From positions 3,840,001 through 3,904,000 of the forward strand of contig OZ241867.1 in the NCBI GenBank assembly GCA_965203175.1: a stretch of DNA of 64,000 nucleotides. The letters run 5' to 3'. The DNA is from Candidatus Latescibacterota bacterium (lineage in GTDB: Bacteria > Latescibacterota > UBA2968 > UBA8231). This document shows positions 15,397-44,624 of this stretch, piece by piece (the first letter of the stretch is position 1; the number at the start of each line of letters is the position of its first letter). Under the pieces are notes generated by a model, which did no database searches, was not told the DNA's origin, and was given only the letters and a program-made list of their open reading frames with translations. The position numbers were made by a program, and so were the translations under genes.

Positions 15397-15430
15397 GCTT
15401 TCCTCTCTGGAGTCGGATCGCAACTTGACT

Positions 15431-20810: not shown

Positions 20811-23591
20811 TCAATCTTTCAGGCTGGCGTACATTGTCATAAACACGGTACTATCCATTTGTGACCGGTCATCTTTTTCAACGCGCTCGCGGCTGATTCT
20901 ACGGATGCTGTAGCCGAGTTGGGCCGTGAGCACATAGCCTAGATACTGTCCCCTGTTCGAAAGCTGCATAGCTATGACTGTGCTGTTGAAATCCTCGGTG
21001 AATTCACCCGCTGCTAAATCGTCTTCATCAACCACCGAATCTCTGAAGAAGAGTTGTTCTATACCCGTCTCTATGGTCGTTCGCCGCAGAACGGGGAATT
21101 CGAAGGTCAGGAAGAGCAAACCAGTCCATTGATCCCGCACAGGGCGCACACCTCCCATAGAATAGGGAGTATTGTCCTTGAGTAATTCGCTCTTGATCTT
21201 CGGCCGCACCGTCAGAGTTTTGTACTGGTACAGATAGTCGGCCTTATTGATGATCCCGAGGAAACGCGTATTGTCCTTAAAACCTAGGTCGTTGCCTTTC
21301 TCCCGCTGCCTGACGGTCTCGTACTTGAATTTATTGGAAAAATTGACTCCGATATTCGTCCGGCGATCAAGGCCTAGCCAAAAAGTATTGATCCAGGTGT
21401 CTTGGGCGAAGAGGGGGTCGTCTATTGCTTGATGCGCTCCGGGCAGGCCTGGAGCTTGTACCCATTGAAAGAGATCGTCCTGAATGTCGTCTGCCGCCTT
21501 TTTGATCATGTCGAAGATACCCACCCGTCCAATCCGGGCGTACTCCTTTTCAAAGCTGACTAGGGCGTACGTGGTCAGGTTTTGGCGGTCGTCCGAAAGG
21601 AGCTGTTCGCGGGCCTGTCCGGCGGTGAGTTGCAGGTGCGGAGTTACCTGATTGCGCAGGTACAAGTTGTAGCCCTTGCGATCCCTCTTGTAGGGATAAT
21701 CGGGCAGGTTGTCGTTTTCGAACTGGTCGACCCAGCCGTTGTTGTTGAGATCGATACCAAAGAGATATTCAGGGCGGTCTGAACCATAGCGCAGGAAGGG
21801 TTCCTCGTAGTCCGGGAAGCGGTTCTCACTGAAGATGTTGCTATTTTGGTTGAAATCGGAGATGAAATCGTTGTTTTGGTCCCAGCCGGGGAACACGGCT
21901 TCGTCGGCGAAACCTTCGGCGGATCTTCCAGTTCTAGCGGCGCGGAATTCCTCACCCGTCCTAGGATCTTGGTAGCGCCGCTTCTGGTCGGGTTTCTTGT
22001 CTTGATCGTCGTTGTCGTCGACGAAGTCGTAGATGCTCCTAGTCCCGTCTTCGTAATCTACTCGGCCGCTACCGTCCGATATGAAGGGACTGGTATTGTA
22101 GGCCGCGTCCATGTAGAAGCCCTCGATAAAGAGGGACCAAGAGAAGATCGATTTGGACAGATTCATCATCCAGGCTTTGGCGTTTTCGGCGCCGACGAGT
22201 CCCGAGTACGCCTTGTGTGTCTTCACCCGGCGATTGGGATATTTTCTGTACTGGTGGTTTACGTCGAACTCGGTGTAAAAGTCAAATCCCAGGAAATCCT
22301 GGGCCTCGATCGTGAAGCCCAATAGCTGGTTAGCCGTGGGCAAGCCGTAGTTGAAGACCACTTCGCGCTTATTCGATCCGTCCTGAATATTGCCTTCGGC
22401 TTGGGCCATCAGCAGGAAGACCGGCTGTCCTTCAAAGTTGGTCTGCTGATCGGAAGTGATCTCGATCCGATAGTCGTTGACTAAGACCAGTCTGAAGCGG
22501 AGATCCCGGATGTTGTTGATGGCATCTTTGTCGTCGAGAATCACGGCTAGGTCGTTCAAATCGTAACGCAACGTGATCTGTTCCGTACCGTTGGCCGTGC
22601 GCACGCCTTCTATAATGGTGCCCCCCTGCCTATGGGGTGTGAAGCCGATCTCATTGCCGACTAGCACTGTGTCTCTGTCGCCGATAGTCGTCGCTATTTC
22701 TACGTTATCCGCTAGTAGGACACTCCCCCCGACATCATCGGCCGGTGAGTCGTCGCTCAGCCGGATGACAATAGTAGTGATCTGGTTTTGTAACTGCAGC
22801 GAGGTTAATTCCCCTTTGAAGGGATTGCCCTCAAAGCTCTGCACGGTCCCCCGGCCGTTGTGGGAATTGACGAAGACCCCTCCCAAGGTAATGGCATCAC
22901 CTAGCCGGACCCTGGTCCGGCCCCCTATCAGGTTGGTGTAGTTGTTGAAAGAGGCCGGATTGGGATCGGTGATGAAGCCCGGTGCGCTGATGCGGGAAAA
23001 GATACCAGTCAGCTCGACAGCATCCGACATGAGATCGACTTGGGCGCCGTTGTACACGGATTTGCGAAAGGTCATTGGCGTTAGAGTCGTGACCAGTTCG
23101 TCGCCAACGGAAATGGAAAAAGAATATTGACCTTTTTGGTCGGAGGCTACAATCAATGAGTTAAAGAAACCGGCATATGCTCCTCTTTTCAGCAGACGGC
23201 TGCCCTCGGAGATCCTCGGGTGATCCTCGGTCCAGTCGTAAACCAACCATCCTCTGGTCAGGAAATTTCCGTACACGTCGTAGAAATAATCGCCCCAGAG
23301 GCTTTGTGCCACATATCTCTGATAGGGATTGCCAGCGTAGTTAGTGTACTGCCAGGTCTGCCACTGGTACTCCTGATACAGCTCTTGGGGCAGATACCGT
23401 TTCCGCACCGATGGCTCCACGTTGCCCAGCAAGGTCTTGGGGCCTTCAGAGCGATACACCACTGTGCCGTCATTGGCTCGGTACCCTAAGCGAGCCCCAT
23501 AGTTTTGCGCAGCCCATCCAGTAGCGGACGATAGAGCTAGTGCGCAGAGCATCCCCACAACAACATACCACGAGCCGTACCTTCTTAGCAT
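20811..23591 (-). CDS. Large secreted protein of unknown function (926 aa), putative outer-membrane beta-barrel with acidic Ca-binding-like motifs
   Basis: RBS AGGAGG; signal peptide; DDNDDQD, WDQNNDFISDFNQN, IDLNNNGWVD; amphipathic beta-strand pattern at C-terminus; paralogue of 23681-26479. Confidence 0.65.
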   Translation of the reverse strand: MLRRYGSWYVVVGMLCALALSSATGWAAQNYGARLGYRANDGTVVYRSEGPKTLLGNVEPSVRKRYLPQELYQEYQWQTWQYTNYAGNPYQRYVAQSLWGDYFYDVYGNFLTRGWLVYDWTEDHPRISEGSRLLKRGAYAGFFNSLIVASDQKGQYSFSISVGDELVTTLTPMTFRKSVYNGAQVDLMSDAVELTGIFSRISAPGFITDPNPASFNNYTNLIGGRTRVRLGDAITLGGVFVNSHNGRGTVQSFEGNPFKGELTSLQLQNQITTIVIRLSDDSPADDVGGSVLLADNVEIATTIGDRDTVLVGNEIGFTPHRQGGTIIEGVRTANGTEQITLRYDLNDLAVILDDKDAINNIRDLRFRLVLVNDYRIEITSDQQTNFEGQPVFLLMAQAEGNIQDGSNKREVVFNYGLPTANQLLGFTIEAQDFLGFDFYTEFDVNHQYRKYPNRRVKTHKAYSGLVGAENAKAWMMNLSKSIFSWSLFIEGFYMDAAYNTSPFISDGSGRVDYEDGTRSIYDFVDDNDDQDKKPDQKRRYQDPRTGEEFRAARTGRSAEGFADEAVFPGWDQNNDFISDFNQNSNIFSENRFPDYEEPFLRYGSDRPEYLFGIDLNNNGWVDQFENDNLPDYPYKRDRKGYNLYLRNQVTPHLQLTAGQAREQLLSDDRQNLTTYALVSFEKEYARIGRVGIFDMIKKAADDIQDDLFQWVQAPGLPGAHQAIDDPLFAQDTWINTFWLGLDRRTNIGVNFSNKFKYETVRQREKGNDLGFKDNTRFLGIINKADYLYQYKTLTVRPKIKSELLKDNTPYSMGGVRPVRDQWTGLLFLTFEFPVLRRTTIETGIEQLFFRDSVVDEDDLAAGEFTEDFNSTVIAMQLSNRGQYLGYVLTAQLGYSIRRISRERVEKDDRSQMDSTVFMTMYASLKD

Positions 23592-23680
23592 GGATCCCTC
23601 CTATTGGACTGTGCGCAAAAGGACGGAGTACCCAAAGCAAGATTCTCCCTTGCTCCACAGGTGTAATCAGCGCCTGCCAT

Positions 23681-26479
23681 TTACTGTTCCACCCCGGCGT
23701 AGATGGTTATGAAGGTAGTGGTGCCAGTTGCGGTGGTGGACTTTTTGTCGACCTCCAGATCCATCATCTCGATGGCCTCTAAGGATGTCCTAGATAGTCG
23801 GAATCCTGTCTGTAACAATAATACGTAGCCTAGGTAATCCGTCGTGGTTGACCACTGAACGGCTAGGTTAGTCTCGTTTAGATCCCCCGTTGGTCCCAGT
23901 ACGCTGTCCTGGACCAAGGCATCTTCGTCTGCCTTCAATTCCCTTAGCTGTCTGAACTCCGTGCCCATTTCAATCATCGAATGCCTCAGCACTGGGAATT
24001 TGAGAATCACCGACAAGAATCCATCCCATTCCTCGATATCTGCCTCGCGGCGCAAGAATGGTGTGCGCTTCAAGTACTGGCTTTTGAAGCGCGGCTGGAT
24101 GCTCAGACCTTCAAGTCGGTAGGTATAATCAACTTTGTTGATAAGCCCGAAAAAGGACGACCTATCGTGGAGCGGGCTTCTGTCCAAAGCCCTGAGATCA
24201 TCGCTGCGCTGAACGTACAGATCGTATTTGATCTTATTGCGGATGTTCAACTGCGAAATCCGCGTATAGTCGAATCCGATAAACAGGGAATTCACCCAGG
24301 TATCCTGGGCGGGCAGAATATCGGCAACCTTAGCGGGCAGACCCGCCAAGAGAAATCCCTGTGGCGCACGGCGGTCATCGGGGATGGTATCTTTGGCTCG
24401 TTTTAGCATATTGAACGCCCGCAAACGCCCTAGGCCGGCCCAATTCTCATCCACGGTCACTAGCCCGTAGGTGGTCGTATTCTCTCGCTCGGAGGAGAGC
24501 AGTTCCTCGCGGGTCTGTCCCACGCTCACCCGGACACTTGGGATGACATGAGCTCCGGAATAGGCATTGTAGCCTCTGTGGTCCCTCTTGTAGGGGAAAT
24601 CTGGCTCGTCGTCGTTCTCGAAACGGTCAATCCAGTCGTTGTTGTTCAAGTCAATGCCAAAGAGAAATTCCGGCCGGTCGACCTCGTACCTGAGAAAGGG
24701 CTCGTCGTAATCGGGGATGCGATTGCTGATTGTCCGATTGTCGTTCTGGTTGAAATCGCTCACGAAATCGTTGTTTTCGTCCCAGCCGGGGAAGATGGCA
24801 AAATCGGGACCTGGCTGACCGCCTCGCTGCCAATCGGGCAGCCGATCCTGATCGTCGTTATCTTCGACGAACTCGTAGAAAAACTGGGAAGGCTGATCGT
24901 AGTTGATATCGCCATTTTGGTTGAGTAGGAAGGAACTAGTGGAGTAGTCGTGGTCCATGGAAAAGGCCTCGCCGAAGAAGAACCAAGGATAATCCTGAAA
25001 GGAGAGGTTCATCATCCAAGCATCCGCTCGGGTCGAAGCATCCTCAAAGGAACGATCTTCGGTAAACAGGGCTAGGTTGGGATACTGCCTGAATTTCTGG
25101 TTGATGTCGTACTCGCCGTAGAAGTTGAAACCTAGGACGTCCTGCGCCTCAACGGTAAAGCCATAAATCTGCGTGGCAGTGGGTAGGCCGTAGTCGAAAA
25201 CCAACCTTCTCCGGTTGGAGCCATCCTTGGTATTGTCGGGTGCACGTGCGATCTCGATCAGGACCGGATTCCTCTCGTCGAGGATCGCTCTGGTCAGAGG
25301 TGCTTCCGGTGGGGTTTCCTGCCCGGTCTGGCGGTCGGACCACACCTCGACTTTGTAGTCGTTGGCCAGGACCAAATCAAAGGTCACTTTTACGATCTCA
25401 GTCGGGTCGGGACCGACATAGGCCGGATCGTTAAAATCGTAGTTGATGATGATCCGCTGAATGCCGTTGGCCGCCAAGAAACCCTCTTCCCGAAAACCGC
25501 CTTCTATGACTGGCCAGCGCGTTGGATCGTTGGTTAGGTCGGCGAGGCTGAGCGTTTCGCGGATTCCGTTCTGGAAATCTTCGCGCACCACGATTAAATC
25601 GTGGGAAAAAAGCGCGGTTCCTCCCTCTCCGTCTTCGGGCGAATCATCGCTGAGCACGAGGGCGATGGCGTTAATAGGCACTCTGGCCTGCCCGTCGCCG
25701 AGTGTGCCCTTGGTGGGATTGCTGTCGAAGGAACCCAGCGTGGTACGGGTGTTGTGGGCATTGACCCAAGTCGCGCCGACGGTGACGAAATCGCCCACCT
25801 GGGCTAGGGCCCGGCCGCCGAGCATATTGGTGGCATTGGTCCGGGTATCGGCGCTGGAGACGGACGACCTGACCGGACTACTGATCCTTGAAAGGAGGAG
25901 CGTGCCAGCGTATTTATCGGCTGCGAGATCTAGCTGAATACCGTTGAATGCAGGCTTGGAAAAGGTCATGGGGGTAAGGGTGGTGCGTATCTGATCCCCC
26001 GTGGTTATGGAGTAGAGAGTACCGCCTTTTGAATCCGTGGCGATCAATACTTGATTGAACCAACCCTGATACCGCGAATCCTGGTAGATGGAACTGCCCA
26101 GAGGGGTCAAGGCTTCCTGACGCCAGTCGTAGATGAGCCAGCCCCGGTTGACGAAATTGCCGAACGTGTCGTAGAAATATTCGCCTTCCCGAGTCGTGTT
26201 TACGTAGCGCTCATAGCGATCTCGGGCATAGTTGGAGTATTCCCAAGTCCGGAAGCGGTAATCGTGGTAGAGTTCTTGGGGGACATACCATCGTTTCACT
26301 GTGGGGTCAAGGGCGTCGAAAAATACCCCTGGTCCCAAGGGTTCAAAGGTGACCTTGCCCCCCCTCTGCTGCCCGAGGCGGTTGTTGTAGTCTTGGGAAA
26401 AAGCCGTCGTGTTCAAAGCCGCGACTATCCACAGTGCTATCCATACTCTGGACCATTCTCTGTAACCTGCATCTACCAT
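23681..26479 (-). CDS. Large secreted protein of unknown function (932 aa), paralogue of the neighbouring gene
   Basis: Shared blocks PQELY, TTLTPMTF, LSDDSP, YGLPTA, FPGWD.NNDF.SDFNQN, RPE.LFGIDLNNN, INK.DY. Confidence 0.65.
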   Translation of the reverse strand: MVDAGYREWSRVWIALWIVAALNTTAFSQDYNNRLGQQRGGKVTFEPLGPGVFFDALDPTVKRWYVPQELYHDYRFRTWEYSNYARDRYERYVNTTREGEYFYDTFGNFVNRGWLIYDWRQEALTPLGSSIYQDSRYQGWFNQVLIATDSKGGTLYSITTGDQIRTTLTPMTFSKPAFNGIQLDLAADKYAGTLLLSRISSPVRSSVSSADTRTNATNMLGGRALAQVGDFVTVGATWVNAHNTRTTLGSFDSNPTKGTLGDGQARVPINAIALVLSDDSPEDGEGGTALFSHDLIVVREDFQNGIRETLSLADLTNDPTRWPVIEGGFREEGFLAANGIQRIIINYDFNDPAYVGPDPTEIVKVTFDLVLANDYKVEVWSDRQTGQETPPEAPLTRAILDERNPVLIEIARAPDNTKDGSNRRRLVFDYGLPTATQIYGFTVEAQDVLGFNFYGEYDINQKFRQYPNLALFTEDRSFEDASTRADAWMMNLSFQDYPWFFFGEAFSMDHDYSTSSFLLNQNGDINYDQPSQFFYEFVEDNDDQDRLPDWQRGGQPGPDFAIFPGWDENNDFVSDFNQNDNRTISNRIPDYDEPFLRYEVDRPEFLFGIDLNNNDWIDRFENDDEPDFPYKRDHRGYNAYSGAHVIPSVRVSVGQTREELLSSERENTTTYGLVTVDENWAGLGRLRAFNMLKRAKDTIPDDRRAPQGFLLAGLPAKVADILPAQDTWVNSLFIGFDYTRISQLNIRNKIKYDLYVQRSDDLRALDRSPLHDRSSFFGLINKVDYTYRLEGLSIQPRFKSQYLKRTPFLRREADIEEWDGFLSVILKFPVLRHSMIEMGTEFRQLRELKADEDALVQDSVLGPTGDLNETNLAVQWSTTTDYLGYVLLLQTGFRLSRTSLEAIEMMDLEVDKKSTTATGTTTFITIYAGVEQ

Positions 26480-26537
26480 CAGGTGTCCCTCCCATTAGCA
26501 AGCGCTTCTCAGAAGCAATCCATACCCCGGCCAGCCT

Positions 26538-28742
26538 TCAATAGGCCACGCCTATGAGGCCGCTCGCCCCGGCCTTGCCGCCGTCGGTGTCCAAATCAAT
26601 GTTGAAAATGTAGAGGCCAGGCGGTACGGTGTTTCCCCGGCCATCTGTGCCGTCCCACGTTCTAGTAAAGCGACCACTCTGGTCGATCCCGCGATAGACT
26701 TCCCGCACCATGCTGCCGGACAAGTCGTATATCCGCAGACCCACATTGGCCCCACTGATGAGATCGGTTATATCAAAGTGTATCTGCGCACTATCGTTGA
26801 TCTGATCCCCATTGGGCGTAAAGACTGTTGGTACGGCGTTGACGTTGATCAGCAAGTCACCCTTTTTCGCCACTTGGACCACTAGATTTCCCGGGTCGCG
26901 GATGAGTGAGGCATTGGAACTTTCTTGGGTCAGGGCAAAGACATTGCCTCCCACCACCCGTTGCGGCACTTCGCCGGGGGTTTCAGACAACGCCAAGGAG
27001 GAAAAGGCGGTTCCAGTCCGCAGTACCACGCATTGGAAGACCACATCCAAGGCAGTCATCTGTCCCGCTTCTATGCGGCTGTTTTCCACTGTGGGGAAGC
27101 TGATCTGGAAGCGATTTTCCTCTACCAAATCAATGCGGAAATCTCCGCGTTCTACCGGGAGGTCGCTCAGGTCTGAGTCCGAGAAATTCTGTTCGAGGCG
27201 GGATCCATCCGGCAGCGACATCCCAATCCGATCTACTGCGTCCACCTTTACGGGTGTGCTGATTTCGACGGAACTGAAGCCTTGATCGATTTCGGGCCGT
27301 ATATCGGGAACAAGCACTAGGGAAAACTCTGTTTTTTGACCCAGGTCCGCCTGACGCGGGGTGATTTCTCCCACGATCTCTGAGGCCAGTACCGGGCTAG
27401 AAAAATCGAAAGACAGCGAACCGATGCCCTTGGCTGAAAAGAGATCTTCACTCAAATAGTCCACCTTGAACTGAAAGTAGCGTCTTGGACCGGGAGACAC
27501 GATTGGCACCCCGCCCATCCCAGCGGATACATTATCAGCGCTAGTTATACCCGCGCTCGCATAGGGCGGAGACCAAGCGCTCCAGTTTTCCAAGTCGTCC
27601 CGCACCGAACCTCTATTGCCCGACCTCAGTTTTTTGTATTCGGCTTGGGTCAGCGATATCTCATTCTTCCTATCGAGAGGGAGGTCTTTGTATAGCAGCC
27701 GGGCCCGCTTTATGTCGAGATCGGGCGAGTCGAGTTGGCTAACGATTTCCCTCGCTTGACTGCCTTCGTCGAATTCCTCGGCCGTCTTCCAAGGCACTTC
27801 AGCTCCGTCGAGATCGCTGCGGAGGCGATTGAACACGACTGGAGAATCGTCAAAGCCGCTCCTAGTACTGATGGGCACTTGGGAGCGGATGGGGTCGCCC
27901 TGGCTTTCCTCCTCCCAGCGCAAATTTCCCCAAAGGGCTAAATTTTCTCCCAGATCGAATACATCTGAATGATACTCTGCCGTGGGCACGAAGCCTTCGC
28001 CGAAAACTTGGAACTCGCCTATTTCAAAGCCCACTGTGGTCTGGGACTTTAGCTGGAGGTAGCGCACATACTGGGGCTCTATCTGCACATCCACTACTGG
28101 CTGATCGTTCTGCAGTACGAGCAGAATGCTGGTAAATACCGGCAAGCCAGCGGCTAGTGTCTCTCGTGTGCCGTCGTTAAGAAAAAGCTCATAGGCCCTC
28201 ATGTAATCGTCCTGAAAGGGAAAATCAGGAGCGAGAAAGTCTGGATCGGCGTTCCTGGGGAAGAAGCGGATGCGACTCACACCAAATCGCGCTCCTAGGT
28301 CGAACTGGAGGACCACGCCCAGCGCCCGGACATTCTGACCAGGGGAACTTTTCCTTTCAAAGGCCGAGCTGGCATTATTGTCTATCATTTTCAACAGATC
28401 TTTGCTCAGATCTGCGAGAACAGTGGGCGCGGTTACGGACCCGCCTCGGTCCAGCAGTTGCAAGGCGATGTTGTCAGTTTGGTCGGCCTTTTCGGGAAAA
28501 ATCCATCCCTCCCGCGCAGAAAAGTCGATAATCCCTCCAGGTACGTTTTCGTTGGTCACCTCTTGGGGGCCTAAGATGATTATCGGATCTATACCACCTC
28601 CACCGTCCTGCCAAGGTCGGCCTTCCGCTCCACCGAGAATGATTAACTCCTTGGTTTCCCCAATACCCACAGACCCGTAGGCGGAGAGCAAAATCCCTAT
28701 AATCAGATATGAGCGTAAATTCGAGCTAAAATCCACTTGCAT
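26538..28742 (-). CDS. Secreted discoidin-like/FlgD-Ig family protein (~734 aa)
   Basis: FDLGARFGVSRIRFFP, EIGEFQVFGEGF, WSAWSPPY, SPGPRRYFQ, FTPNGDQIND, IYDLSG, WDGTD..G..VPPGLY; ends GVAY. Confidence 0.8.
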   Translation of the reverse strand: MQVDFSSNLRSYLIIGILLSAYGSVGIGETKELIILGGAEGRPWQDGGGGIDPIIILGPQEVTNENVPGGIIDFSAREGWIFPEKADQTDNIALQLLDRGGSVTAPTVLADLSKDLLKMIDNNASSAFERKSSPGQNVRALGVVLQFDLGARFGVSRIRFFPRNADPDFLAPDFPFQDDYMRAYELFLNDGTRETLAAGLPVFTSILLVLQNDQPVVDVQIEPQYVRYLQLKSQTTVGFEIGEFQVFGEGFVPTAEYHSDVFDLGENLALWGNLRWEEESQGDPIRSQVPISTRSGFDDSPVVFNRLRSDLDGAEVPWKTAEEFDEGSQAREIVSQLDSPDLDIKRARLLYKDLPLDRKNEISLTQAEYKKLRSGNRGSVRDDLENWSAWSPPYASAGITSADNVSAGMGGVPIVSPGPRRYFQFKVDYLSEDLFSAKGIGSLSFDFSSPVLASEIVGEITPRQADLGQKTEFSLVLVPDIRPEIDQGFSSVEISTPVKVDAVDRIGMSLPDGSRLEQNFSDSDLSDLPVERGDFRIDLVEENRFQISFPTVENSRIEAGQMTALDVVFQCVVLRTGTAFSSLALSETPGEVPQRVVGGNVFALTQESSNASLIRDPGNLVVQVAKKGDLLINVNAVPTVFTPNGDQINDSAQIHFDITDLISGANVGLRIYDLSGSMVREVYRGIDQSGRFTRTWDGTDGRGNTVPPGLYIFNIDLDTDGGKAGASGLIGVAY

Positions 28743-28774
28743 CGGAGTCCTAACCTCCAATTGGATTCATATCC

Positions 28775-30679: not shown

Positions 30680-30717
30680 GTACCTCGCAAATCCTGGACG
30701 CCGGTCTTACGCATCCC

Positions 30718-33288
30718 TCAGTACGCTACATGGACCACCCGCTGCACAAAAGTGTTATCGGCCGAGCCAGAATCCACATCCACCTTTACCCTAGCCAAGT
30801 ATATCCCCGGAGGAACCGGCTCGCCCAAATGATCCTTGCCATCCCAGCGAAAAGTATAATTCCCGCGAGGATCTGGCCGGCGTTCTTCTATCCGATTGGC
30901 CTCAACCCCACTCAGATCGTAAACGGTCAGAGTCACTGGTCTCTCAGCACCCACCCGCGCTACGCCAAAGCTGACTACTAGCTCATCATTGACGCCGTCC
31001 CCATTGGGCGTGAATACCCGCGACCCCAGTCTGAAATCCCTAATAATTTCGTCCCCGCTGAGTGCTAGGACGGTGACGGTCTGGCTGCTGACCAGTTCCG
31101 TAGGATCGCCCTCGTCAACTCGCTGCCAGAATCCAGGTACGGCGGAATTCTGTACCAGGGCTCTAAAGGAGGCACTGTTGCCGAATATGGTAGCGCGAAA
31201 CCGGACCTGAACTAGTTCCGTTCCGCGGTCAATTTTCTCGTCCAAGCGCAACATGAGGGAGTCGGCAGGCGTATCGATCAGAGTCAGATCAGCTGGTGCG
31301 TAGTTGGTGGTTTGTCCGTTGGCGAAATCATCCTTACTTCCCGTCCGGACTTCAAGCAACTCCATCTCAGTACCCGCCGTGGCCTCTAAGCTGATCTCGT
31401 CGAAACCTTGGCCTGTCGCAGTGAAATCAGGCCGGATGAAGTAAGAGAATTCCTCAGGGGTGCCCACGGTCTCAATCCGGGTGGGCCATACTTCTCCCAC
31501 CAGCCGATCAGCAACGGGATCTGAGGTGTTGATGGCAATGGAGCGGAGGGTGGCACCCGCGTCCGCCCTGTCCGAGAGCAATATGAGCCGAAGTTCCATA
31601 TACTGTCTAGGACTGGGGGATTTGATCGCTTCCCCGGACTGAGTGTTCGGCACGCTCCACGTGCTCCAATCGTCACCCGGTTTGAATGTGCTGGTGATAT
31701 CGCCCTTTTTGGACTTAGGCAGCTTGTTGTAGCGCTTCTCGGTGACTACTTTGCCATTGGAATCGTGGTAGATTTTCTCTTCTATCAGCTCATTGCCTGT
31801 CCGGGTCTGCAGTTGGACCTGGGTCCCGGCCGGTGTATCCGCCTCCCACTCTACGGAAATCAGGTTCTTAGGTTCGTTAAATTGGATTAGATCCGAGGTC
31901 AGCGATACTTCCGCCACAAAGCCCTCGCCATAGAGCATCACTTCCGTAAAAGCTATGTAGCTGAGCGAACTCAATGGATTCTGGAACGGCGAGCGGATAA
32001 AGCGGATCTTGGAAGGCTCAAGCTGAATTTCGCGAAATCGCAAGCCACGAGAAGAGGTATGACCAAAAGCGTCCCTAGAGGTACTTTGACCCACCCGAGT
32101 CCATTTGATGCTGCCATCTGGTGCCCGGGTACCATCGGAGACATCGACGTAAAGTTCGTTGATCGGCGAGGCTCCGTCGGTGAGAAAATGCATGGTATCG
32201 ATCCAGAATAGAGCCCCTAAATCCTCGAAGTAATCATAGTCGCGATAGCCGAAAATCGACCCATTAACACCCGTGCTGTAGTTGCCGTCGCTAACGGCAG
32301 TCCCAATGTCCTTAACGCCGGCATTGTCCTCGATCGTCACCTGTCCTCCCCGCTCCACCACACCCATGTTGACATTGTCTCCCTCCGTCACGACCTCGAT
32401 CTCGGCGATTCTGGGAATTTCCCTCCGGTAGTAGCGGATCGGGCCTTGGCGTTCGGGATCAATGCTGTCGTATTCCCCTTGTGAAATCAGAGTTTCCCGG
32501 CCAGACCGTTCTTTCCGATAGAATTCGATAGCGCCTTGCTGTTGTGTCGGCAGATTATCGTACTCCTGCTCAGTCAATTCTTCGGCCTTGGTCGAATCAC
32601 TATTGATGGCAATTATTAGAATGCGCTCGAGCGGATCGCCCTTGAAGAGCAGATCCGATCCTTCAGTCGGACGGGGTTCAAATTCGAATACGCGCTGTGT
32701 CTTGTTGGGCTTTTCGGTCCGGCCGATTTCCCAGAAGTTGGGGACGTTGGTCTTGGGCTCGTCGAGATAGTAGCCCGAAACTGAGCGCGGTGGGGGTTGC
32801 CGCCAGCCCAGCACCTTGAACTGCAGGAAGGGATCTCCCTCTCCTTCTTGGGCAAAGCGTATGACGATTTTTTTGACGACCACTATGCGGCCAAGATTCA
32901 CCTCTGTCCACCAATCTTCCAGAGGGCTTTCGGGATTGGGACCCCACATGGTCTGCAGGTCGCCATCTATCAGGTTGTTCACCGTATTGGTACCGGAGCC
33001 TGCTATCACTCCCCCCTCGCCGGTAGTGGAAAATTGCGTCGCGTTCTGAGCCGCGTTGACCTCTTTCCGTATAAAGGAAGGCCGCACCGTATTGTCGGCC
33101 CTGGAAATATCCAGAAGACTCGACGCCCCTTTCCACGCCTGCCAGTGGGCTGCTCGGTTAATCAGGACTTGATTGCCGCGAATAGCGTGGCCCTGCTGCG
33201 ACCAGGCTTGGAGGGGAAAAACCAGCAGGGTACTGATCCACACCAAGCGGGGGATACCTAGACGACAGGAGATCGAGTCAACTATCAT
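30718..33288 (-). CDS. Secreted protein with two discoidin-like domains and C-terminal FlgD-Ig domain (~856 aa)
   Basis: NLIDGD..TMW...EVNLGR and SDGNYST...DLGALFWID; WSTWS, SPSPRQY, FTPNGDGVND, WDGKD..G..VPPGIY; ends HVAY. Confidence 0.8.
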   Translation of the reverse strand: MIVDSISCRLGIPRLVWISTLLVFPLQAWSQQGHAIRGNQVLINRAAHWQAWKGASSLLDISRADNTVRPSFIRKEVNAAQNATQFSTTGEGGVIAGSGTNTVNNLIDGDLQTMWGPNPESPLEDWWTEVNLGRIVVVKKIVIRFAQEGEGDPFLQFKVLGWRQPPPRSVSGYYLDEPKTNVPNFWEIGRTEKPNKTQRVFEFEPRPTEGSDLLFKGDPLERILIIAINSDSTKAEELTEQEYDNLPTQQQGAIEFYRKERSGRETLISQGEYDSIDPERQGPIRYYRREIPRIAEIEVVTEGDNVNMGVVERGGQVTIEDNAGVKDIGTAVSDGNYSTGVNGSIFGYRDYDYFEDLGALFWIDTMHFLTDGASPINELYVDVSDGTRAPDGSIKWTRVGQSTSRDAFGHTSSRGLRFREIQLEPSKIRFIRSPFQNPLSSLSYIAFTEVMLYGEGFVAEVSLTSDLIQFNEPKNLISVEWEADTPAGTQVQLQTRTGNELIEEKIYHDSNGKVVTEKRYNKLPKSKKGDITSTFKPGDDWSTWSVPNTQSGEAIKSPSPRQYMELRLILLSDRADAGATLRSIAINTSDPVADRLVGEVWPTRIETVGTPEEFSYFIRPDFTATGQGFDEISLEATAGTEMELLEVRTGSKDDFANGQTTNYAPADLTLIDTPADSLMLRLDEKIDRGTELVQVRFRATIFGNSASFRALVQNSAVPGFWQRVDEGDPTELVSSQTVTVLALSGDEIIRDFRLGSRVFTPNGDGVNDELVVSFGVARVGAERPVTLTVYDLSGVEANRIEERRPDPRGNYTFRWDGKDHLGEPVPPGIYLARVKVDVDSGSADNTFVQRVVHVAY

Positions 33289-33344
33289 GATGGCCCCTCC
33301 AGGATGCAAACTTGTCGAGTGGTTAAACGGCTCTTAGATGCTAA

Positions 33345-33384
33345 AACACAAAGAGGGGATATCGAAATATCCCCTCTTTGTGTT
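33345..33384 (-). terminator. Strong hairpin (18-bp stem, UUCG loop on minus strand) after the second WGRIK gene
   Basis: aacacaaagaggggatat-cgaa-atatcccctctttgtgtt; short T tail on minus strand. Confidence 0.8.
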
Positions 33385-33397
33385 GGAAAAACTGGAA

Positions 33398-34327
33398 TTA
33401 TTCTTCCAGCAGGTAATGGGACTTAATTCTGCCCCACGAGTCGTTTTCTACAGCGGTGGGGAACAGCTCTTCATCGACCTCCAGCAGTTCCATGTCGCCC
33501 ATGAGGTTGGCATTGCGCCAGACATTGTGAACAGCCGGAAAATCGTAGGAGCCCTCGTAGCTGGAGTCCAAGTCGTAGTCTTTAGACAGGGAGCCGACGT
33601 GGATGATATTGCCTACTTCCAAGTCGACGATTGTGCTTTGCTCAGGACCATCCCAACTCCAAGTTTCCCACGGGGTCATCATGATCTCGTAGGAATAAGT
33701 ACCCGGACCACCAGTCTCGCCGGTGCGGGCCCAGCCCACTTGGGCGTACTCGGGGAAGGGGATCTCGCGGCCAGTGGTCTCCCAGTCGGTTGCCTCGATG
33801 TATTTGAAAGCCCAGTACCCATCGATGGGCGGCACGTGAATCTGCCACAGTTGGCCCGTGGTGAAAAACAAATCCCGGCGCTCGTCTTCGGACAAATCGT
33901 TCCAATCGCCGTTAAACATATCGCCACCGCTGTGGTCGGCGTCGAGCACGAAGTGCCAGTCGTCATCCCAGTTGAAGACGGTGGGGTCGTCGCGGTCGTT
34001 GTTGAGATTATCGTCAACCACAAAGGCAAAGGAGAAAACCCGGTTCATTTCCTCGTTCCAGGCCCATACGCTCCTAGCGTTGAAATCCGACAGCTCGCCG
34101 CTGTCAGTCCCGCGCACGGTTTCTACGATGTGGCCTCCTTCCACCGAGATCTCGAAGATATCTGGATCTACCATATCCCAGTCGCTTAGATCGCCGTCGA
34201 TGGTGGGCACGGCGTGAAGCGGGAACTGAAAGGCGAAGTAAACCTCGCCAGGCGGTTCGTGAGCCGAGCCGATACTAGCGCCGGCGACCACGAGCGCTAA
34301 AGCCAGAAAGCAACGAATCAGTTTCAT
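33398..34327 (-). CDS. Secreted CBM9/DOMON-like protein with C-terminal WGRIK motif (309 aa)
   Basis: RBS AGGAGG; signal peptide ...GSA|HEPPG; PTIDGDLSDWD; ends TAVENDSWGRIKSHYLLEE. Confidence 0.8.
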   Translation of the reverse strand: MKLIRCFLALALVVAGASIGSAHEPPGEVYFAFQFPLHAVPTIDGDLSDWDMVDPDIFEISVEGGHIVETVRGTDSGELSDFNARSVWAWNEEMNRVFSFAFVVDDNLNNDRDDPTVFNWDDDWHFVLDADHSGGDMFNGDWNDLSEDERRDLFFTTGQLWQIHVPPIDGYWAFKYIEATDWETTGREIPFPEYAQVGWARTGETGGPGTYSYEIMMTPWETWSWDGPEQSTIVDLEVGNIIHVGSLSKDYDLDSSYEGSYDFPAVHNVWRNANLMGDMELLEVDEELFPTAVENDSWGRIKSHYLLEE

Positions 34328-34518
34328 TACCTTAACCTCCTGTTAGGTGTTGGATTGAAAAGCCGATTCATCTGTCTGCTCAATTTTGTATAAACTACTA
34401 TAAAACTGCCTAGTTATCAGGCTATAAGACCTCCTTTCCCCTGATTGTTTAGACGTTCCTGCTGCGGATACTTAGTTTGGTAATATACGAGCAAAAAGTC
34501 CAAGTACAAAGAAAAATT

Positions 34519-36660
34519 TCAATCCTTTCCCTCCAACTGCTGTATTCGGCCCGCCGATGGATGATTGGGTGCCAACTCTATCCCCTTCTGCCAGTACGCA
34601 CGGGCCTGCTGACGTCGTTCCAAGCGCCACAAGGCCCGGCCTAGATTGAAGTAGGCCGGGGCAAAATCTGGGTGCAACGCGACCAGTTCTTCCCAGGTTT
34701 CCACGGCTTTTTTCAGATTTCCCAAGGAGGCGTACGCCACTCCGAGTTCGTTGTATGCCTCTTGGTACGCTGGTTGCAGGGCTATGGCCTGCTCCAAAAA
34801 GTGCACGGCTTGCTCCAATTGGCCCACTTGAGCATAGGTCCGTCCCATCTGGGTGTAGAGATAGCGTCCCACTTCTAGGCCGATCAATTCCTCGGGTACA
34901 GGCGCAATTTCCAAGGCCCGGTGGTACGCCTGCAAGGCACCCGTCCAATCTTTTTCGGCCCTAGCTTGGTGGCCGTGCAAAACCCGGTGCAGCGCCTCAA
35001 AATAGGAATGGGTTTCTATCCGAACCGAATCTCCACCCATAGAGAGCGTGTCTAGTCGGACGACAGGTCCCGTCCTTTCTACTTGGTCAAATCCCGCAAT
35101 CGGCAAAAAGTACCAGTCCATTCGGTCGAAAATAGCCGATTCCACCTGACCTGGTGAGAAGACTTCCCGCCATTGGCTCGTCTCCAGAAGGAGTTGGAAA
35201 GCGAGCGGTATATCCTCGTCGGGGCACACCGGATGCTGATAGTGGAGGATAACGACTGGGGTACTAACGCTGTCCCGGGCTGTCGGCTGCATCTTCTCCA
35301 CCCTCGTCTCTAGGTACAGGGGCGGCAGATCATCGCGCTGGGCTAGTAGCGCGTACGCCCGCAGTAACGCTTCGCTGCCGTAGCTCTGCAGGTAGTGGGT
35401 CTGCCGCACTTGCACGCGCTCGGGTGTCAGTATCTGGATCTGGCCGCACTTTGAGGGCAATTGGATCAGGTGCTGGTACTGGGGAAGGTGGGCTTGAAGC
35501 CAAGCCTGAGCCTCTATGCGGGTGTCTTGGTCACTGAGTAAGGATCTAGTGCGGAGTGAGGCGTACAGGGGCTCGGCCACTAAGGTCAGGGTGATCAAGC
35601 CACCCACCACAGGGTACTTCCATCCCATTCCGACCAAACGTCCGATGAGCAGGGCCAGTAGGGGAGCAAGGGGTAGGGCATAGCGCATGAAAGTGGAGCC
35701 AGCAAGCACGAGGACTACAGCCAAGGGGACGATGCCAGCCAGCAAGACGAGTTCCTGCCACTGCCGCTGGCGAACGCCCCAGAGCAGGGACAGAGCTACA
35801 ACCACGGCAGCCACCGCGCCCAGACCGTGGCGCAGGGTATAGCGCAGGTGGTAGAGCCAAGCCTGTTCCTCTGTGCTCGACTCGGCCAGCAGGTGGGTTT
35901 GTCCCATATCGGTGAAATGGCTCCAAAACTGCCCGGCGTCGAGCCAGACAAAGGGCGTGGTTAAGGCAAAACTCAACGCAGCCCCACTGACGACCCAGAT
36001 GCTGCGCCTCCATGGACAAGGTCTCTCCAACAAAATCGCCGTGATTACTGGTACCGCTACTAGCACTGCCGGGTACTTAGTCGCCGCGGCTAAGCCAGTG
36101 AAAATGCCCGCGACCAGAAAATCCCGCACGCGCCCATCCTGTCGGGCCCGCACGGCCCACAACAGGGCCATTACCGCCCAGAAAACAGCCGGCGTATCCA
36201 CGATGGCCAGATGGGCAAAACGCACGGCTAGCGGCATGGTCGCTAGGATCAGAGCGGCCAAGAGCCCTTCTCTGACGCCGTAGAGGCGTCGGCCTAGACA
36301 GGCGATAGCTCCTACTGTGGCAACGGCCAGCAGAGTGTTGGCTCCACGCACTAGCGCCAACAAATCGCGACCGTCCACCAGCAAGTGATAGGCCACAAAC
36401 TGCTCCACTGATTCGGCGCTTGTCGCCAGATAGTAGAGCAGGTACAAAAGGGAACTTAGGTAGAAGTGAAAGGTCGGGTAGTTAAAGTAGTGGGGATTGA
36501 GATCTCCGCTCCAGAAACCCAGCGGCAGGACTATAAAAGCGATCTCGTCGAAGTGAGTCCAGGCTGGTGTGGGTACTGGCCAGCGCAGCGCCAGCGCCAG
36601 CAACAGAATGGCACCCGTACCCCATGTGAAGGGGATGCGCCCTGCGTTTTTCTCTGACAT
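34519..36660 (-). CDS. GT-C (PMT/ArnT-like) glycosyltransferase with C-terminal TPRs
   Basis: HFDE, NPHYFNYP, GLAAATKYP, RYALP, DTRIEA; TPR repeats at C-terminus. Confidence 0.85.
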   Translation of the reverse strand: MSEKNAGRIPFTWGTGAILLLALALRWPVPTPAWTHFDEIAFIVLPLGFWSGDLNPHYFNYPTFHFYLSSLLYLLYYLATSAESVEQFVAYHLLVDGRDLLALVRGANTLLAVATVGAIACLGRRLYGVREGLLAALILATMPLAVRFAHLAIVDTPAVFWAVMALLWAVRARQDGRVRDFLVAGIFTGLAAATKYPAVLVAVPVITAILLERPCPWRRSIWVVSGAALSFALTTPFVWLDAGQFWSHFTDMGQTHLLAESSTEEQAWLYHLRYTLRHGLGAVAAVVVALSLLWGVRQRQWQELVLLAGIVPLAVVLVLAGSTFMRYALPLAPLLALLIGRLVGMGWKYPVVGGLITLTLVAEPLYASLRTRSLLSDQDTRIEAQAWLQAHLPQYQHLIQLPSKCGQIQILTPERVQVRQTHYLQSYGSEALLRAYALLAQRDDLPPLYLETRVEKMQPTARDSVSTPVVILHYQHPVCPDEDIPLAFQLLLETSQWREVFSPGQVESAIFDRMDWYFLPIAGFDQVERTGPVVRLDTLSMGGDSVRIETHSYFEALHRVLHGHQARAEKDWTGALQAYHRALEIAPVPEELIGLEVGRYLYTQMGRTYAQVGQLEQAVHFLEQAIALQPAYQEAYNELGVAYASLGNLKKAVETWEELVALHPDFAPAYFNLGRALWRLERRQQARAYWQKGIELAPNHPSAGRIQQLEGKD

Positions 36661-36732
36661 TTGGCGCTTTTCTCGCCTAGACTGGACCAATCATCCGCCC
36701 CTTGTAGGGCGGGGGCGGGGGAGGATTACGAG

Positions 36733-38481
36733 CTAGCCGCTGGTGAGAACGCGTTTCAGGTTGTCCTCTCGGATCTCGATCTGTGATGCGTATTTGGTCC
36801 GCAGTTCGGCCAAGAATTGTTCAAATACCTGCTGCTTTTTGATCCAGTTGACTGTGGCCCGCACCCGCTTTTTGGCTCCTTCAAAGGAGGCCCGCTGCTG
36901 CTCGCGGGACAACACCTTGAAAATGGAGTACCCCTCGCGCACCTGCAGCGGCCCGATCAGCTCGCCCACGGGGGCTTTTCGGGCCGCCGCCACCAAGCGT
37001 CCGTACACCGCTGCGGCCGCAACCGTAAAACGCCGTCGGCCCTCTTCATCTCGCAGCTCTGGAGAGCGTTTGGAGTACTGGCGCGCCAAATCTCCCATGG
37101 ACGCACCCTGCCGGAGGCGTTCAAGCAAGTCCTTGGCCTCCTCTTCGGTGGCGACGAGGATTTCCTGGATCTCGATCTGGTCGGGCTTCGTGTAGCGGTC
37201 GGGATTTTCTTCGTATTCCCGGCGGATATCCTCTGCGGAAATGCTTACGCGCTCCTTCAACACTTGGACGCGCAACTGCACGACCAATTCCTGTTCTCGT
37301 TTCCTCGCCAGCCATTGCGTGATTTCCTCTTCCCGATCTAGGCCCTCCCGCAGGGCGGCTTCGACAAAGAGCGCATCGGGGGCCAAGGTACCTTCGGCGA
37401 ACTCGATAACTGCCTCTTTGTTGCGCAAGTCCAGCGTTTTGTATTTGAGTTGACTGGCGGCATCGAATACATCTCCGGCCGTGATCGTTCCTCCTTCATA
37501 GCGATAGAGAACAATAGCCCGCACTTCTTCGTCTCCGGAGGTGGATCCTCTGTGCATTGCCGCCGAGAAAGCGTCTAATCCCTGCTGGTCCCTTTCGAGT
37601 TTGAGGGCTTCTTTGAGGCTGTCGGTCAGGGCAGCCCTCGCCTCGACGCTGCGCTCGATGAAGAGTTGGCGGTAAATATTCTGGAATTGCTCGGCGTCTA
37701 GCCCGGTTTCGATTGACTCCAAGGCTTTGAAAAGGGCGAAATGACCACCGATGTCTATGGGCTGGCTCACTTCTCCTTTTTCAAGTGCGAAGAGGGGCGT
37801 GTGCAGATAGGGGGGCATATCTAGCTTGCCGACAAACCGACCGGTGTCTCCTCTTTGCTCCATTGTTGGTTTGTGGATGGACCACTGCTCGGCCACTTCT
37901 CCAAAATCTCGTCCCGAGGTGATCTCGCGCAGGGCTGACCAAGCGCTGTCTTTGCTGGTGGTGATGATTTGGGCAAAGCGGATTTTGCGCGCCAATTCCC
38001 GTTCCTGAAAGTAATCGCTGACCTCCTGTCCCGAGACTCGCACCTTGATCTTTTTAATCTGATAGAGGCCAATGAGCTTTTCCTTCTTGTACTGGGATAT
38101 CTTGTAGATGAAGGCTGGCAGGCGATCTATCCCTTGATCCTCGGCCTCCAACTGCAGCAGCTCCATATCGATGAGCGTCTGCAAATGGTTGCGCTCCTTC
38201 TCCAGTCCTTTACTGTCACTCTGGAGGTAATTGGGGATTTTGCCGTAGAACGCCCGTAGCTGACCAGCAGTGATGGATTGGTCTCCCACCCGGGCTAGTT
38301 CCAGTTTCCACTGGGCCGTCGAGTCCAGAGTTGTGGTGAGCTCTATCGTCGGCTGGGATGCTTTTTCCTCTTGCTCAGTGCACCCAGCCCCCAAAATCGC
38401 CAGCAGCGCTGCCCCGATCACCCATCTTGTCGCGGTGGATACAAGGCGTATTATTGCCTTGGGGCTTAGGTGTTTCATCAT
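36733..38481 (-). CDS. PpiC/parvulin-type peptidyl-prolyl isomerase lipoprotein (SurA/PrsA-like) with two rotamase domains
   Basis: Lipobox GAGC; DFGEVAEQWS..GDTG..GEVSQPI and MGDLARQYS..GELIGPL..GYSIFKV. Confidence 0.85.
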   Translation of the reverse strand: MMKHLSPKAIIRLVSTATRWVIGAALLAILGAGCTEQEEKASQPTIELTTTLDSTAQWKLELARVGDQSITAGQLRAFYGKIPNYLQSDSKGLEKERNHLQTLIDMELLQLEAEDQGIDRLPAFIYKISQYKKEKLIGLYQIKKIKVRVSGQEVSDYFQERELARKIRFAQIITTSKDSAWSALREITSGRDFGEVAEQWSIHKPTMEQRGDTGRFVGKLDMPPYLHTPLFALEKGEVSQPIDIGGHFALFKALESIETGLDAEQFQNIYRQLFIERSVEARAALTDSLKEALKLERDQQGLDAFSAAMHRGSTSGDEEVRAIVLYRYEGGTITAGDVFDAASQLKYKTLDLRNKEAVIEFAEGTLAPDALFVEAALREGLDREEEITQWLARKREQELVVQLRVQVLKERVSISAEDIRREYEENPDRYTKPDQIEIQEILVATEEEAKDLLERLRQGASMGDLARQYSKRSPELRDEEGRRRFTVAAAAVYGRLVAAARKAPVGELIGPLQVREGYSIFKVLSREQQRASFEGAKKRVRATVNWIKKQQVFEQFLAELRTKYASQIEIREDNLKRVLTSG

Positions 38482-42560: not shown

Positions 42561-42710
42561 AAGATGGGCCTTGGGGGATAGGGGGCCTATAGAAGAAACA
42601 ATCCTACGATCACTACATTAGCCACATGTTTTCTATATATAGATACGAATATTGGCTCAGATTGCGAAAGTTGACTTTTCGCGGACGGCCAACGGCAAAC
42701 GAAAAATTGC

Positions 42711-44594: not shown

Positions 44595-44624
44595 AAGATG
44601 GGCCTAAGGCAAACGAAAAATTGC

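Follow-up and report, generated by a model that had tools for sequence, protein, structure and literature searches.

A repeated cassette of type-B-like cargo and giant barrel genes as a candidate type IX-dependent surface module of Latescibacterota

This study concerns a gene cassette carried by a 64,000-nucleotide stretch of DNA (hereafter the window) from a Candidatus Latescibacterota bacterium (assembly GCA_965203175.1, contig OZ241867.1, positions 3,840,001 to 3,904,000), which is part of one contig of 6.58 Mb with 57% G+C, the source genome. Latescibacterota are widespread, uncultured bacteria, many of which are placed in sponges and marine samples by record titles and run labels. A first-pass annotation, based on the sequence of the window, had pointed to eight co-oriented genes running from a chaperone to two proteins of ~930 amino acids (aa) and had read them as a distinct cell-surface export and display system. 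All eight genes are present on the minus strand, at the positions given below. We label them P (parvulin), G (GT-C glycosyltransferase with TPR repeats), W (WGRIK protein), F (a family with TPNGD tails, here Fa, Fb, and Fc), and B (barrel). Their order in the direction of transcription is P, G, W, a hairpin, Fa, Fb, Fc, B1, and B2. Signal peptides in these proteins were assigned by eye only.

The cassette and its copies

36733..38481, minus strand: P, 582 aa, SurA/PrsA-like parvulin (PpiC-type) chaperone, probable lipoprotein
34519..36690, minus strand: G, 723 aa, GT-C (PMT_2) glycosyltransferase with C-terminal TPR repeats
33398..34327, minus strand: W, 309 aa, exported protein with a predicted CBM9 fold, an invariant first mature His, and the C-terminal tag TAVE-xx-SWGRIK
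33346..33383, minus strand: hairpin directly after W, perfect 17-bp stem with a 4-nt loop, terminator- or stabiliser-like
30718..33309, minus strand: Fa, 863 aa, secreted, N-terminal region discoidin-like, C-terminal domain TPNGD...VAY
28775..30679, minus strand: Fb, 634 aa, secreted, C-terminal domain TPNGD...VAY
26538..28760, minus strand: Fc, 740 aa, secreted, C-terminal domain TPNGD...VAY, the subfamily found directly upstream of the barrel gene
23681..26479, minus strand: B1, 932 aa, predicted outer-membrane beta-barrel of a new family, acidic EF-hand-like segment at about residues 530-630
20811..23591, minus strand: B2, 926 aa, paralogue of B1

The cassette is present at 39 places in the genome, a scale of ~40 copies that the first-pass annotation had missed, together with the CBM9 fold of W and the general nature of the WGRIK tail as a tag. 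Searches of the genome with B1 gave 51 places of at least 509 bits (the matched pieces total 76, the weaker ones being more distant paralogues) and searches with W gave 40. A greedy map of 5024 open reading frames (ORFs), labelled by phmmer with the window proteins, contains 59 B, 39 W, 36 P, and 51 DUF6785 genes, the last encoding membrane proteins discussed further below, as well as 135 F-family proteins of at least 120 bits (62 Fa-type, 46 Fb-type, and 27 Fc-type). Taken together, the B, F, W, and P genes account for 8.7% of the genome, or 10.3% if the DUF6785 genes are included. The 59 B genes form 46 runs (35 single, nine double, and two triple) in 39 clusters, and the first large or labelled gene upstream of the run is a same-strand F gene in 41 of them. 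An F gene lies within six genes of 45 of the 46 B runs, where random positions would give 10.6; for P genes the count is 31 (4.0 expected) and for W genes 28 (3.8 expected). Recurrence at 39 places of the genome and in other Latescibacterota assemblies excludes a chance origin of the cassette.

A word-index protein search for relatives of B1, in which 8000 candidates were scored, returned 1185 proteins at E ≤ 1e-3. The best 120, mostly of 909-951 aa (two measure 762 and 881 aa), are all annotated as ‘hypothetical protein’ and belong to Latescibacterota, ‘Gemmatimonadetes’, and one ‘Gammaproteobacteria’ metagenome-assembled genome (MAG). A profile of B compared with 1.84 billion cluster representatives matched 954 clusters at E ≤ 1e-3 (340 at E ≤ 1e-30), and the best 150 of these 954 are unnamed and provide no bridge to a known family. 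A collection with one genome per species contained 640 confirmed stretches, of which the best 80 come nearly all from Latescibacterota MAGs, with some titled Gemmatimonadetes and one, a 2.4-kb contig, titled Myxococcales; loci 96-97% identical to the window are titled Candidatus Latescibacterota MAGs. A neighbourhood check across MAGs showed that the gene order is kept in these relatives, as the first pass had supposed: the recurring arrangement is W, Fb (~640 aa), Fa (~860 aa), Fc (~745 aa), B1 (~930 aa), B2 (~950-990 aa), and P (~565 aa), with the flanks and the position of P varying. Pairs of B1 and B2 recur as well, G is retained in the orthologous loci (L011-L016), and in all 44 related loci with a same-strand F gene directly upstream of the barrel gene this F is of the Fc type, ending in [VAIT]Y.

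Tail classes, giant barrels, and type IX components

Fa, Fb, and Fc are distant paralogues (cross-scores of 92-187 bits), each ending in a FlgD_ig/CHU_C-like domain with TPNGD..ND and a final VAY; the full tail pattern of the family reads TPNGD..ND ... WDG ... VPPG.Y ... [AV]Y-end. Fa scores 31.9 bits with FlgD_ig and 28.4 with CHU_C (cut-off 27 for both), Fc 35.2 and 37.7, and Fb 32.1 and 23.3, respectively. The type B model TIGR04131 (cut-off 35) gives 25.1 bits in Fc, 17.8 in Fb, and no match in Fa, and the CHU_C and TIGR04131 matches are confined to the last ~100 residues. In the discoidin-like region of Fa, F5_F8_type_C reaches 25.5 bits, slightly below its cut-off of 28.2. A search with F retrieved nothing from the PDB sequences beyond the FlgD Ig domain in the tail, and its matches in the Atlas were only unnamed clusters with FlgD_ig, CHU_C, and F5_F8_type_C. 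These matches and the TPNGD..ND motif agree with the first-pass suggestion that the domains are akin to type B sorting domains of the type IX secretion system. Since the tails satisfy the type B models only in part, with CHU_C over cut-off in two of the three cassette proteins and TIGR04131 below cut-off throughout, we name them ‘type-B-like’.

The ORF map contains 128 proteins with TPNGD..ND in their last 130 aa, all of which belong to the F family and end in [AVIS]Y. Another 41 proteins carry NYPNPF, which we take to be a hallmark of type A tails, and have K, R, or E as their last residue; NYPNPF and TPNGD never occur in one protein. The type A tail model TIGR04183 matches 103 places of the genome at E ≤ 1e-3. 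The TPNGD...Y tails are thus predicted to be a type-B-like type IX secretion domain distinct from the type-A-like tails of the same genome. Barrel genes are linked to the first of these classes: the gene upstream of the B run is of TPNGD type in 36 of the 46 runs, of NYPNPF type in one, and of neither type in nine, and 83 of the 128 TPNGD proteins lie within six genes of a B gene, compared with four of the 41 NYPNPF proteins. This upstream position supports the idea, already present in the first pass, that such cargo goes with a neighbouring outer-membrane barrel gene that takes the place of PorP/SprF.

The same linkage could exist without any physical partnership, if B were a general porin or structural outer-membrane family co-regulated and co-duplicated with secreted adhesins, their adjacency being a matter of operon inheritance. 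The evidence for linkage is all genomic and might stem from the duplication of whole blocks, and 45 of the 128 TPNGD proteins are encoded away from any B gene. However, the adjacency of Fc and B holds across cassettes that are 40-55% identical and across families of the phylum even though P and the flanking genes change place, it discriminates between the two tail classes, and a general porin would not be expected to track the presence of PorU (see below). We consider this explanation quite improbable.

B1 and B2 are 41% identical over their full length and have no Pfam or NCBIfam match at E ≤ 0.01. The N-terminal and acidic pieces of B retrieved nothing from Pfam at E ≤ 10, Plug and TonB_dep_Rec included, and a profile built from the B1 alignment gave only chance matches among the PDB sequences (E 0.08 or worse). 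The AlphaFold model of B1, made from a 47-row alignment (predicted local distance difference test, pLDDT, 70.3; predicted TM-score, pTM, 0.66), consists mostly of long antiparallel hairpins. Foldseek found 74 PDB matches to it at E ≤ 1e-3, down to E 5e-8 and with a query-normalised TM of at most 0.26, headed by SlpA/SDBC, MtrB, LptD, FimD, and TonB-dependent receptors. The VIA fold search, which is independent of Foldseek, reached Z values up to 13.1 with FhaC, TamA, Sam50, Tom40, CymA, PelB, and others. All Foldseek matches to rank 50 and all VIA matches at Z ≥ 8.2 are membrane beta-barrels, either bacterial outer-membrane proteins or their mitochondrial relatives. On these models, B1 and B2 are predicted to be large outer-membrane barrels of no specific known family, as the first pass had anticipated for its ~930-aa proteins. 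The model is of low confidence in the best-conserved part of B, residues 530-630, where many Asp and Asn are invariant. This part contains a 12-residue EF-hand-like loop (e.g. DLNNNDWIDRFE) in 29 of the 59 B paralogues as against 35 of 4965 other proteins, according to a loop pattern that we assumed to represent EF-hands. The predicted complex of B1 (residues 29-932) with the C-terminal domain of Fc (646-740) scored 0.00 in two runs, which is evidence neither way. We also considered B as a replacement for TonB-dependent receptors and ruled it out, as the genome holds 31 Plug-domain receptors over cut-off.

Among the VIA matches of B1 are PelB (9h80_M, Z 11.9), a polysaccharide secretin (4y25_A, Z 11.9), and BcsC (9b8h_A, Z 8.9), and G has a PMT_2 match (PF13231, 62.9 bits, cut-off 26.1, residues 114-249) followed by TPR repeats of several TPR families (570-715). 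These features might indicate that the cassette exports or assembles a surface polymer, with G building or transferring a glycan, B acting as an export barrel of the PgaA/BcsC/PelB/AlgE kind, and F and W modifying or binding the polymer. The presence of a G gene within six genes of 19 of the 46 B runs, where 5.1 are expected, would fit this scheme, but 27 runs have no G nearby and the three fold matches are no better than those to dozens of unrelated barrels. In addition, among 66 scanned neighbours (out of 148 unlabelled genes encoding at least 250 aa within five genes of a B gene) there is no polymerase, flippase, Wza/Wzc, or synthase gene, and PMT_2-type GT-C enzymes with TPR domains more typically glycosylate proteins. 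Polymer export thus appears very improbable. G may instead act on the proteins of the cassette, the glycosylation that the first pass had supposed.

As to how the F proteins may leave the cell, the genome encodes PorU (632.5 bits, cut-off 420), SprA (618 bits, over cut-off, in a 2133-aa frame), and, directly downstream of PorU, a PorV-like gene (147.5 bits, below the cut-off of 250; E 1e-42). The genome search for SprA that accompanied the first-pass proposal was therefore positive, and the proposal of a distinct export system was not borne out: because SprA, PorU, and the PorV-like gene are present, a separate system is unnecessary to explain the cassette, and these components would most simply export the F cargo. 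For PorP/SprF, the best TIGR03519 match in the genome has 21.3 bits (cut-off 90.55) and is located in the PorV-like gene itself, and PF11751 matched none of 11 genomes of the genus in a search without positive control.

We surveyed a sample of 151 genomes of the phylum and found B in 93, PorU over cut-off in 93, and W in 93. When B and PorU were cross-tabulated by hand, 88 genomes had both, five only B, five only PorU, and 53 neither; the five with B alone are fragmented or 57-68% complete assemblies. B occurs in all 63 genomes of the window's own family and in none of the 30 and 19 genomes of two sister families of the same class. The Fc tail reaches at least 34 matches per genome (the scoring limit) in the genus of the window, up to that limit in its family, and 0-3 weak matches per genome (E about 1e-9 to 1e-10) in four families devoid of B. 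Three of these B-less families encode a frame of ~1900 aa that matches positions 5-737 only of the PorU model, with ~260-280 bits (e.g. G039:C1:4187008-4189167). The barrel, W, and true PorU are therefore found in nearly the same Latescibacterota families.

The W protein, its tag, and neighbouring genes

W has no Pfam (E ≤ 0.01) or NCBIfam match and its structure was modelled with a pLDDT of 87.4. Residues 28-283 superpose on the CBM9 module 1i82_A (VIA Z 19.8, root-mean-square deviation 2.5 Å over 188 aa; Foldseek E 1e-10), and the next fold match is a putative carbohydrate-binding protein of Bacteroides (Z 15.3), followed by haem-binding gamma subunits, those of ethylbenzene dehydrogenase (Z 12.2) and nitrite oxidoreductase (Z 11.2). 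PF06452 (CBM9) is carried by three of the best 120 W homologues and by 13-94% of the members of the Atlas clusters nearest to W. The model thus gives W a CBM9 fold, and sugar binding is predicted. Ten residues are invariant in 47 W homologues (H23, D44, G45, W50, D105, D129, D131, H132, E214, and D278), as is the motif DADHSGG (129-135). H23 is the first residue past the likely signal-peptide cut; an invariant first mature His together with the other invariant residues suggests a putative metal or ligand site, and an N-terminal His recalls the histidine-brace copper proteins.

W ends in ...TAVENDSWGRIKSHYLLEE. In this tail, TAVE-xx-SWGxIK, the W, G, and K are conserved at 90% or more, and the segment is modelled as a short helix. 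In 79 proteins, 35 of the W family and 44 others, the last 25 residues contain a WGxIK-type pattern, which just three more proteins have elsewhere. The general form of the tag is T[AS]VE-xx-SWG[RQHK][ILV]K, followed by 3-12 residues to the protein end. The 44 other tagged proteins are exported, and some of them look PD40-like, Cache-like, or CBM9-like by eye. Tag sites lie, for example, at C1:1361532-1376241, C1:4966210-4983946, and C1:5057660-5066094, and in the window at 33398-33460 and 1948-2010. From its sequence, the tag may be a new sorting, docking, or membrane-anchoring signal; literature searches with WGRIK-type motif strings returned only unrelated papers. Proteins of ~1045 aa are encoded near tagged PD40-like clusters (C1:1354431-1357580, 1363282-1366461, 2247564-2250689, 4974336-4977461, and 4984143-4987280). 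We examined them as candidate barrels and rejected them, their ends resembling by eye cytoplasmic sigma-54-type regulators; with a Fis-type helix-turn-helix-like end, they look like sigma-54-type activators with a sensor propeller.

The hairpin after W is also a recurrent feature. The 90 nt that follow the gene fold at -30 kcal/mol or lower for 33 of 39 W genes, whereas the share is 23% for 300 random genes, 13% for the F family, and 36% for B, and a perfect stem of at least 9 bp follows 15 of 39 W genes versus 10 of 300 random genes. RNA libraries cover this region: 18 metatranscriptome runs from seven studies, labelled sponge or marine, contain 10-16% of the sampled words of the stretch, and four runs of four studies yielded contigs 90-99% alike over the W, F, and B genes, including a single contig of 6904 nt (21918-28822) that spans B2, B1, and Fc. 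F contigs end at 33213 and 33247 and W contigs start at 33374 and 33462, the hairpin being uncovered. This gap is a weak hint of a transcript boundary and only that, because DNA carry-over is possible in the libraries and no DNA run was compared. Contig depths of 489-1116 for W (33374-34384; 549 in X1), 17-34 for F, and 6-16 for B cannot rank the genes, and in the four runs contigs hardly touch the region of G and P (34461-38700), the uncovered part carrying no meaning.

P matches Rotamase_2 (86.5 bits, cut-off 27) and Rotamase (67.5 bits, cut-off 21.7), with SurA_N_3 at 20.1 bits, below its cut-off of 27.2. Its copy in the window has a Cys after a hydrophobic N-terminus, a lipobox assigned by eye; of the 36 P proteins in the genome, 19 conform to a strict lipobox pattern and more do so by eye.

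Other features of the window belong to the same families:

1948..2868, minus strand: second W gene, ending in ...DDSWGRIKARFK; the longest ORF extends to 3084
about 1862..1894, minus strand: hairpin after the second W, GC-rich 11-bp stem and T-run
3..1823, minus strand: F gene after the second W; its C-terminal domain falls just past the window start (tail match C1:3839694-3839975)
40677..46511, minus strand: three tandem Fb-type genes (627, 627, and 628 aa) with FlgD_ig and CHU_C matches and the same C-terminal domain
2993..4933, minus strand: DUF6785+DUF6784 gene
9785..11761, minus strand: DUF6785+DUF6784 gene
15425..17455, plus strand: DUF6785+DUF6784 gene
17506..19461, plus strand: DUF6785+DUF6784 gene
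48376..50394, plus strand: DUF6785+DUF6784 gene
50426..52459, plus strand: DUF6785+DUF6784 gene

The first pass had noted that the order of WGRIK protein, hairpin, and FlgD-type gene recurs at the window start, again downstream of GT-C genes. W, hairpin, and F are indeed there, but the gene directly upstream (2993-4933) encodes a DUF6785/DUF6784 membrane protein and not a GT-C enzyme; the PMT_2 gene nearest to this second W copy lies at 11792-13606. Beyond the window start, the second copy continues in the genome ORF map with F720-, F703-, P551-, F1086-, and B886-. The tandem Fb-type trio at 40677-46511 adjoins a second, divergent GT-C/TPR gene (38470-40638) and has no adjacent barrel gene.

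The DUF6785+DUF6784 proteins of the window have ~650-675 aa, and 42 of the 51 DUF6785 proteins of the genome have 9-11 hydrophobic segments. Profile comparison (hhalign) with the GT-C genes of the window gave a probability of 0.13, leaving unsupported the idea that they are GT-C enzymes, and we found no literature on DUF6785 or DUF6784. The remaining context of the B genes is catabolic but variable, judging from the annotation of the 66 scanned neighbours. These include nine FG-GAP/ASPIC-UnbV proteins, several TPR proteins, four solute-binding proteins, three ABC permeases, five PhyH proteins, two FGE-sulfatase proteins, one sulfatase, two GDSL lipases, a GH5 cellulase with CBM_4_9, a PL4 rhamnogalacturonan lyase, one MR_MLE, one DHDPS, and one further CBM9_1 protein. 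FG-GAP_3 + UnbV_ASPIC proteins of ~540-630 aa recur by cassettes (L091, L092, L097, L102-L104, L106, and L107).

Such neighbours raise the question of whether the cassette serves nutrient import in the manner of polysaccharide utilization loci (PULs), with B1 and B2 as SusC-like channels, F and W as glycan binders resembling SusD/E/F, and nearby ABC transporters or DUF6785 proteins completing the uptake, a role that would be compatible with anchoring. The ~40 diverged paralogous cassettes are reminiscent of PULs, W has a predicted carbohydrate-binding fold and Fa a discoidin-like region, B is big enough for a wide channel, and DUF6785 genes lie within six genes of 17 of the 46 B runs (4.7 expected), to which the solute-binding proteins, ABC permeases, GH5, PL4, sulfatase, FGE-sulfatase, PhyH, MR_MLE, and DHDPS genes listed above may be added. 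Nevertheless, B has no Plug domain or other Pfam match in a genome that already holds 31 Plug-domain receptors, the neighbouring enzymes are heterogeneous and no fixed part of the cassette, and a tight adjacency of Fc and B limited to one tail class is better explained by a relation between cargo and partner. Import of this kind therefore seems unlikely.

Proposed mechanism and comparison with known systems

Our preferred reading, in which we place about even confidence, is that the window cassette is one of ~40 copies of a lineage-specific, type IX-dependent surface module in which lectin-like cargo is held by cognate giant barrels. For the route of secretion, the physical binding, the surface location, the ligand, and the roles of P, G, and W, we infer the following from sequences, folds, and analogy. 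The lectin-like Fb, Fa, and Fc would reach the periplasm by Sec and cross the outer membrane via the SprA translocon, with the type-B-like C-terminal domain as the signal for crossing. They would bypass PorV/PorU, the type A route, and be received and held on the surface by B1 and B2, encoded directly downstream, which would play the role that the small PorP/SprF barrels have for type B cargo in Bacteroidota. The SurA/PrsA-like lipoprotein P may be dedicated to chaperoning the barrels or the cargo, and W, made from its own hairpin-bounded transcription unit, could join the assembly by its C-terminal tag. The likely task would be the binding of glycans or glycoconjugates for food capture or adhesion to host matrix, each paralogous cassette probably having its own specificity.

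The analogy that guides this proposal comes from Bacteroidota, where type B cargo is reported to bind PorP-like barrels for surface anchorage (PMC9143113) and a porP/sprF-like gene to be commonly located directly downstream of the type B cargo gene, in specific cognate pairs (PMC12618676). As the cassette follows the same cargo-then-barrel logic with a different, larger barrel, we take B1 and B2 as cognate outer-membrane partners of the TPNGD-type cargo, a reading that on this analogy could equally well prove right or wrong.

Several observations weigh against this proposal. The binding of F to B would rest on genomic linkage and analogy, and B is ~3 times the size of PorP/SprF with no detectable shared sequence. 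The pairing of type B cargo and barrel in Flavobacterium is one-to-one, whereas the cassette has three cargo genes and two barrels. The B model is of moderate confidence (pLDDT 70.3), with the conserved N-terminal 120 residues and the acidic segment unmodelled. On the side of the cargo, the partial type B model matches and the 45 TPNGD proteins distant from any B gene have been mentioned, and some F tails of the cassettes have weak matches to the type A model as well (21-25 bits). Five surveyed genomes have PorU without B, which means that the type IX system does not need B, and the co-distribution of the two rests on few clades that are statistically non-independent, since the surveyed genomes are kin and few independent events are reflected. 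A complete type IX system is also not established from the genome sequence: GldL (TIGR03513) and GldM (TIGR03517 and PF12081) are unmatched, although their absence cannot be claimed because a valid positive control was lacking for these searches (of the 14 control genomes none had a match to the TIGR models, and just three had one to PF12081, below cut-off and in genomes not known to have the system). Either the Gld motor is too diverged for these models or the lineage energises secretion differently. Finally, with 31 Plug receptors already in the genome, nothing forces a nutrient role on the cassette.

Whatever its function, 8.7% of the genome is devoted to one module whose core genes are all annotated as ‘hypothetical’. 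In agreement with the first pass, which recognised none of them as characterised, searches of the literature on Latescibacteria or Latescibacterota with type IX secretion, polysaccharide utilization, FlgD, and sponge hosts yielded no description of the cassette, supplements aside. The words ‘secretion’ and ‘outer membrane’ are absent from the dedicated sponge Latescibacterota genome paper (PMC12993501), and the 2015 Latescibacteria paper assumes, in the part of its text considered here, non-specific porins (PMC4454575). If the proposed module is real, the principle of type B cargo and PorP would reach beyond Bacteroidota to a new and much larger barrel family, and a major surface apparatus of a candidate phylum could be named. 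Candidate lectins, ~135 in number, would be gained, as would a new C-terminal tag and a CBM9 family of stand-alone proteins that may have a metal site. Metaproteomic and structural studies of how food or host material is bound in these bacteria would have a defined target. A bolder version, which we regard as rather doubtful, would make the cassette the phylum's own surface machine and its counterpart of PULs, repeated ~40-fold with diverged specificities and composed of two giant calcium-binding barrels, three type IX lectins, and a CBM9 subunit, with the tag as a third sorting or docking class for unrelated exported proteins.

The closest known system is that of type B cargo with PorP/SprF (SprB-SprF, PG1035-PorP). 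Both have a TPNGD-type C-terminal domain with matches to CHU_C (PF13585), over cut-off in two of the three cassette proteins, a barrel gene directly downstream of the cargo gene, a cargo class separate from type A in the same genome, and SprA, PorU, and PorV or a PorV-like protein. In place of PorP/SprF proteins of roughly 300 aa, the Latescibacterota cassettes encode new-family barrels of ~930 aa in which an acidic EF-hand-like segment is invariant and which PorP/SprF models do not match, usually as two paralogues with three cargo genes and in ~40 copies per genome. They also include a parvulin lipoprotein and a CBM9-fold protein in the set, their host belongs to another phylum, and the GldL and GldM models are unmatched in it.

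The SusC/SusD PULs of Bacteroidota resemble the cassettes in having many diverged paralogous loci per genome and a large outer-membrane barrel paired with carbohydrate-binding surface proteins, often with catabolic and transport genes nearby. They differ in that no domain of the Plug or TonB-dependent receptor kind is present in B, enzymes do not belong to the constant set of the cassette, and its putative binding proteins would be type IX cargo and a Sec-exported CBM9-fold protein instead of lipoproteins. W superposes on the CBM9 module of Thermotoga maritima Xyn10A (1i82), of DOMON-like fold, and has relatives with PF06452, but in contrast with that module it is a stand-alone exported protein and not part of an enzyme, with its own invariant first His, DADHSGG motif, and TAVE-xx-SWGxIK tag. 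P, for its part, shares with SurA and PrsA two PpiC-type rotamase regions, a weak SurA-like N-terminal match and, like PrsA, a probable lipoprotein nature. Unlike them, it exists in 36 copies per genome, each beside a cassette, so that the P proteins are probably client-specific chaperones rather than one housekeeping SurA.

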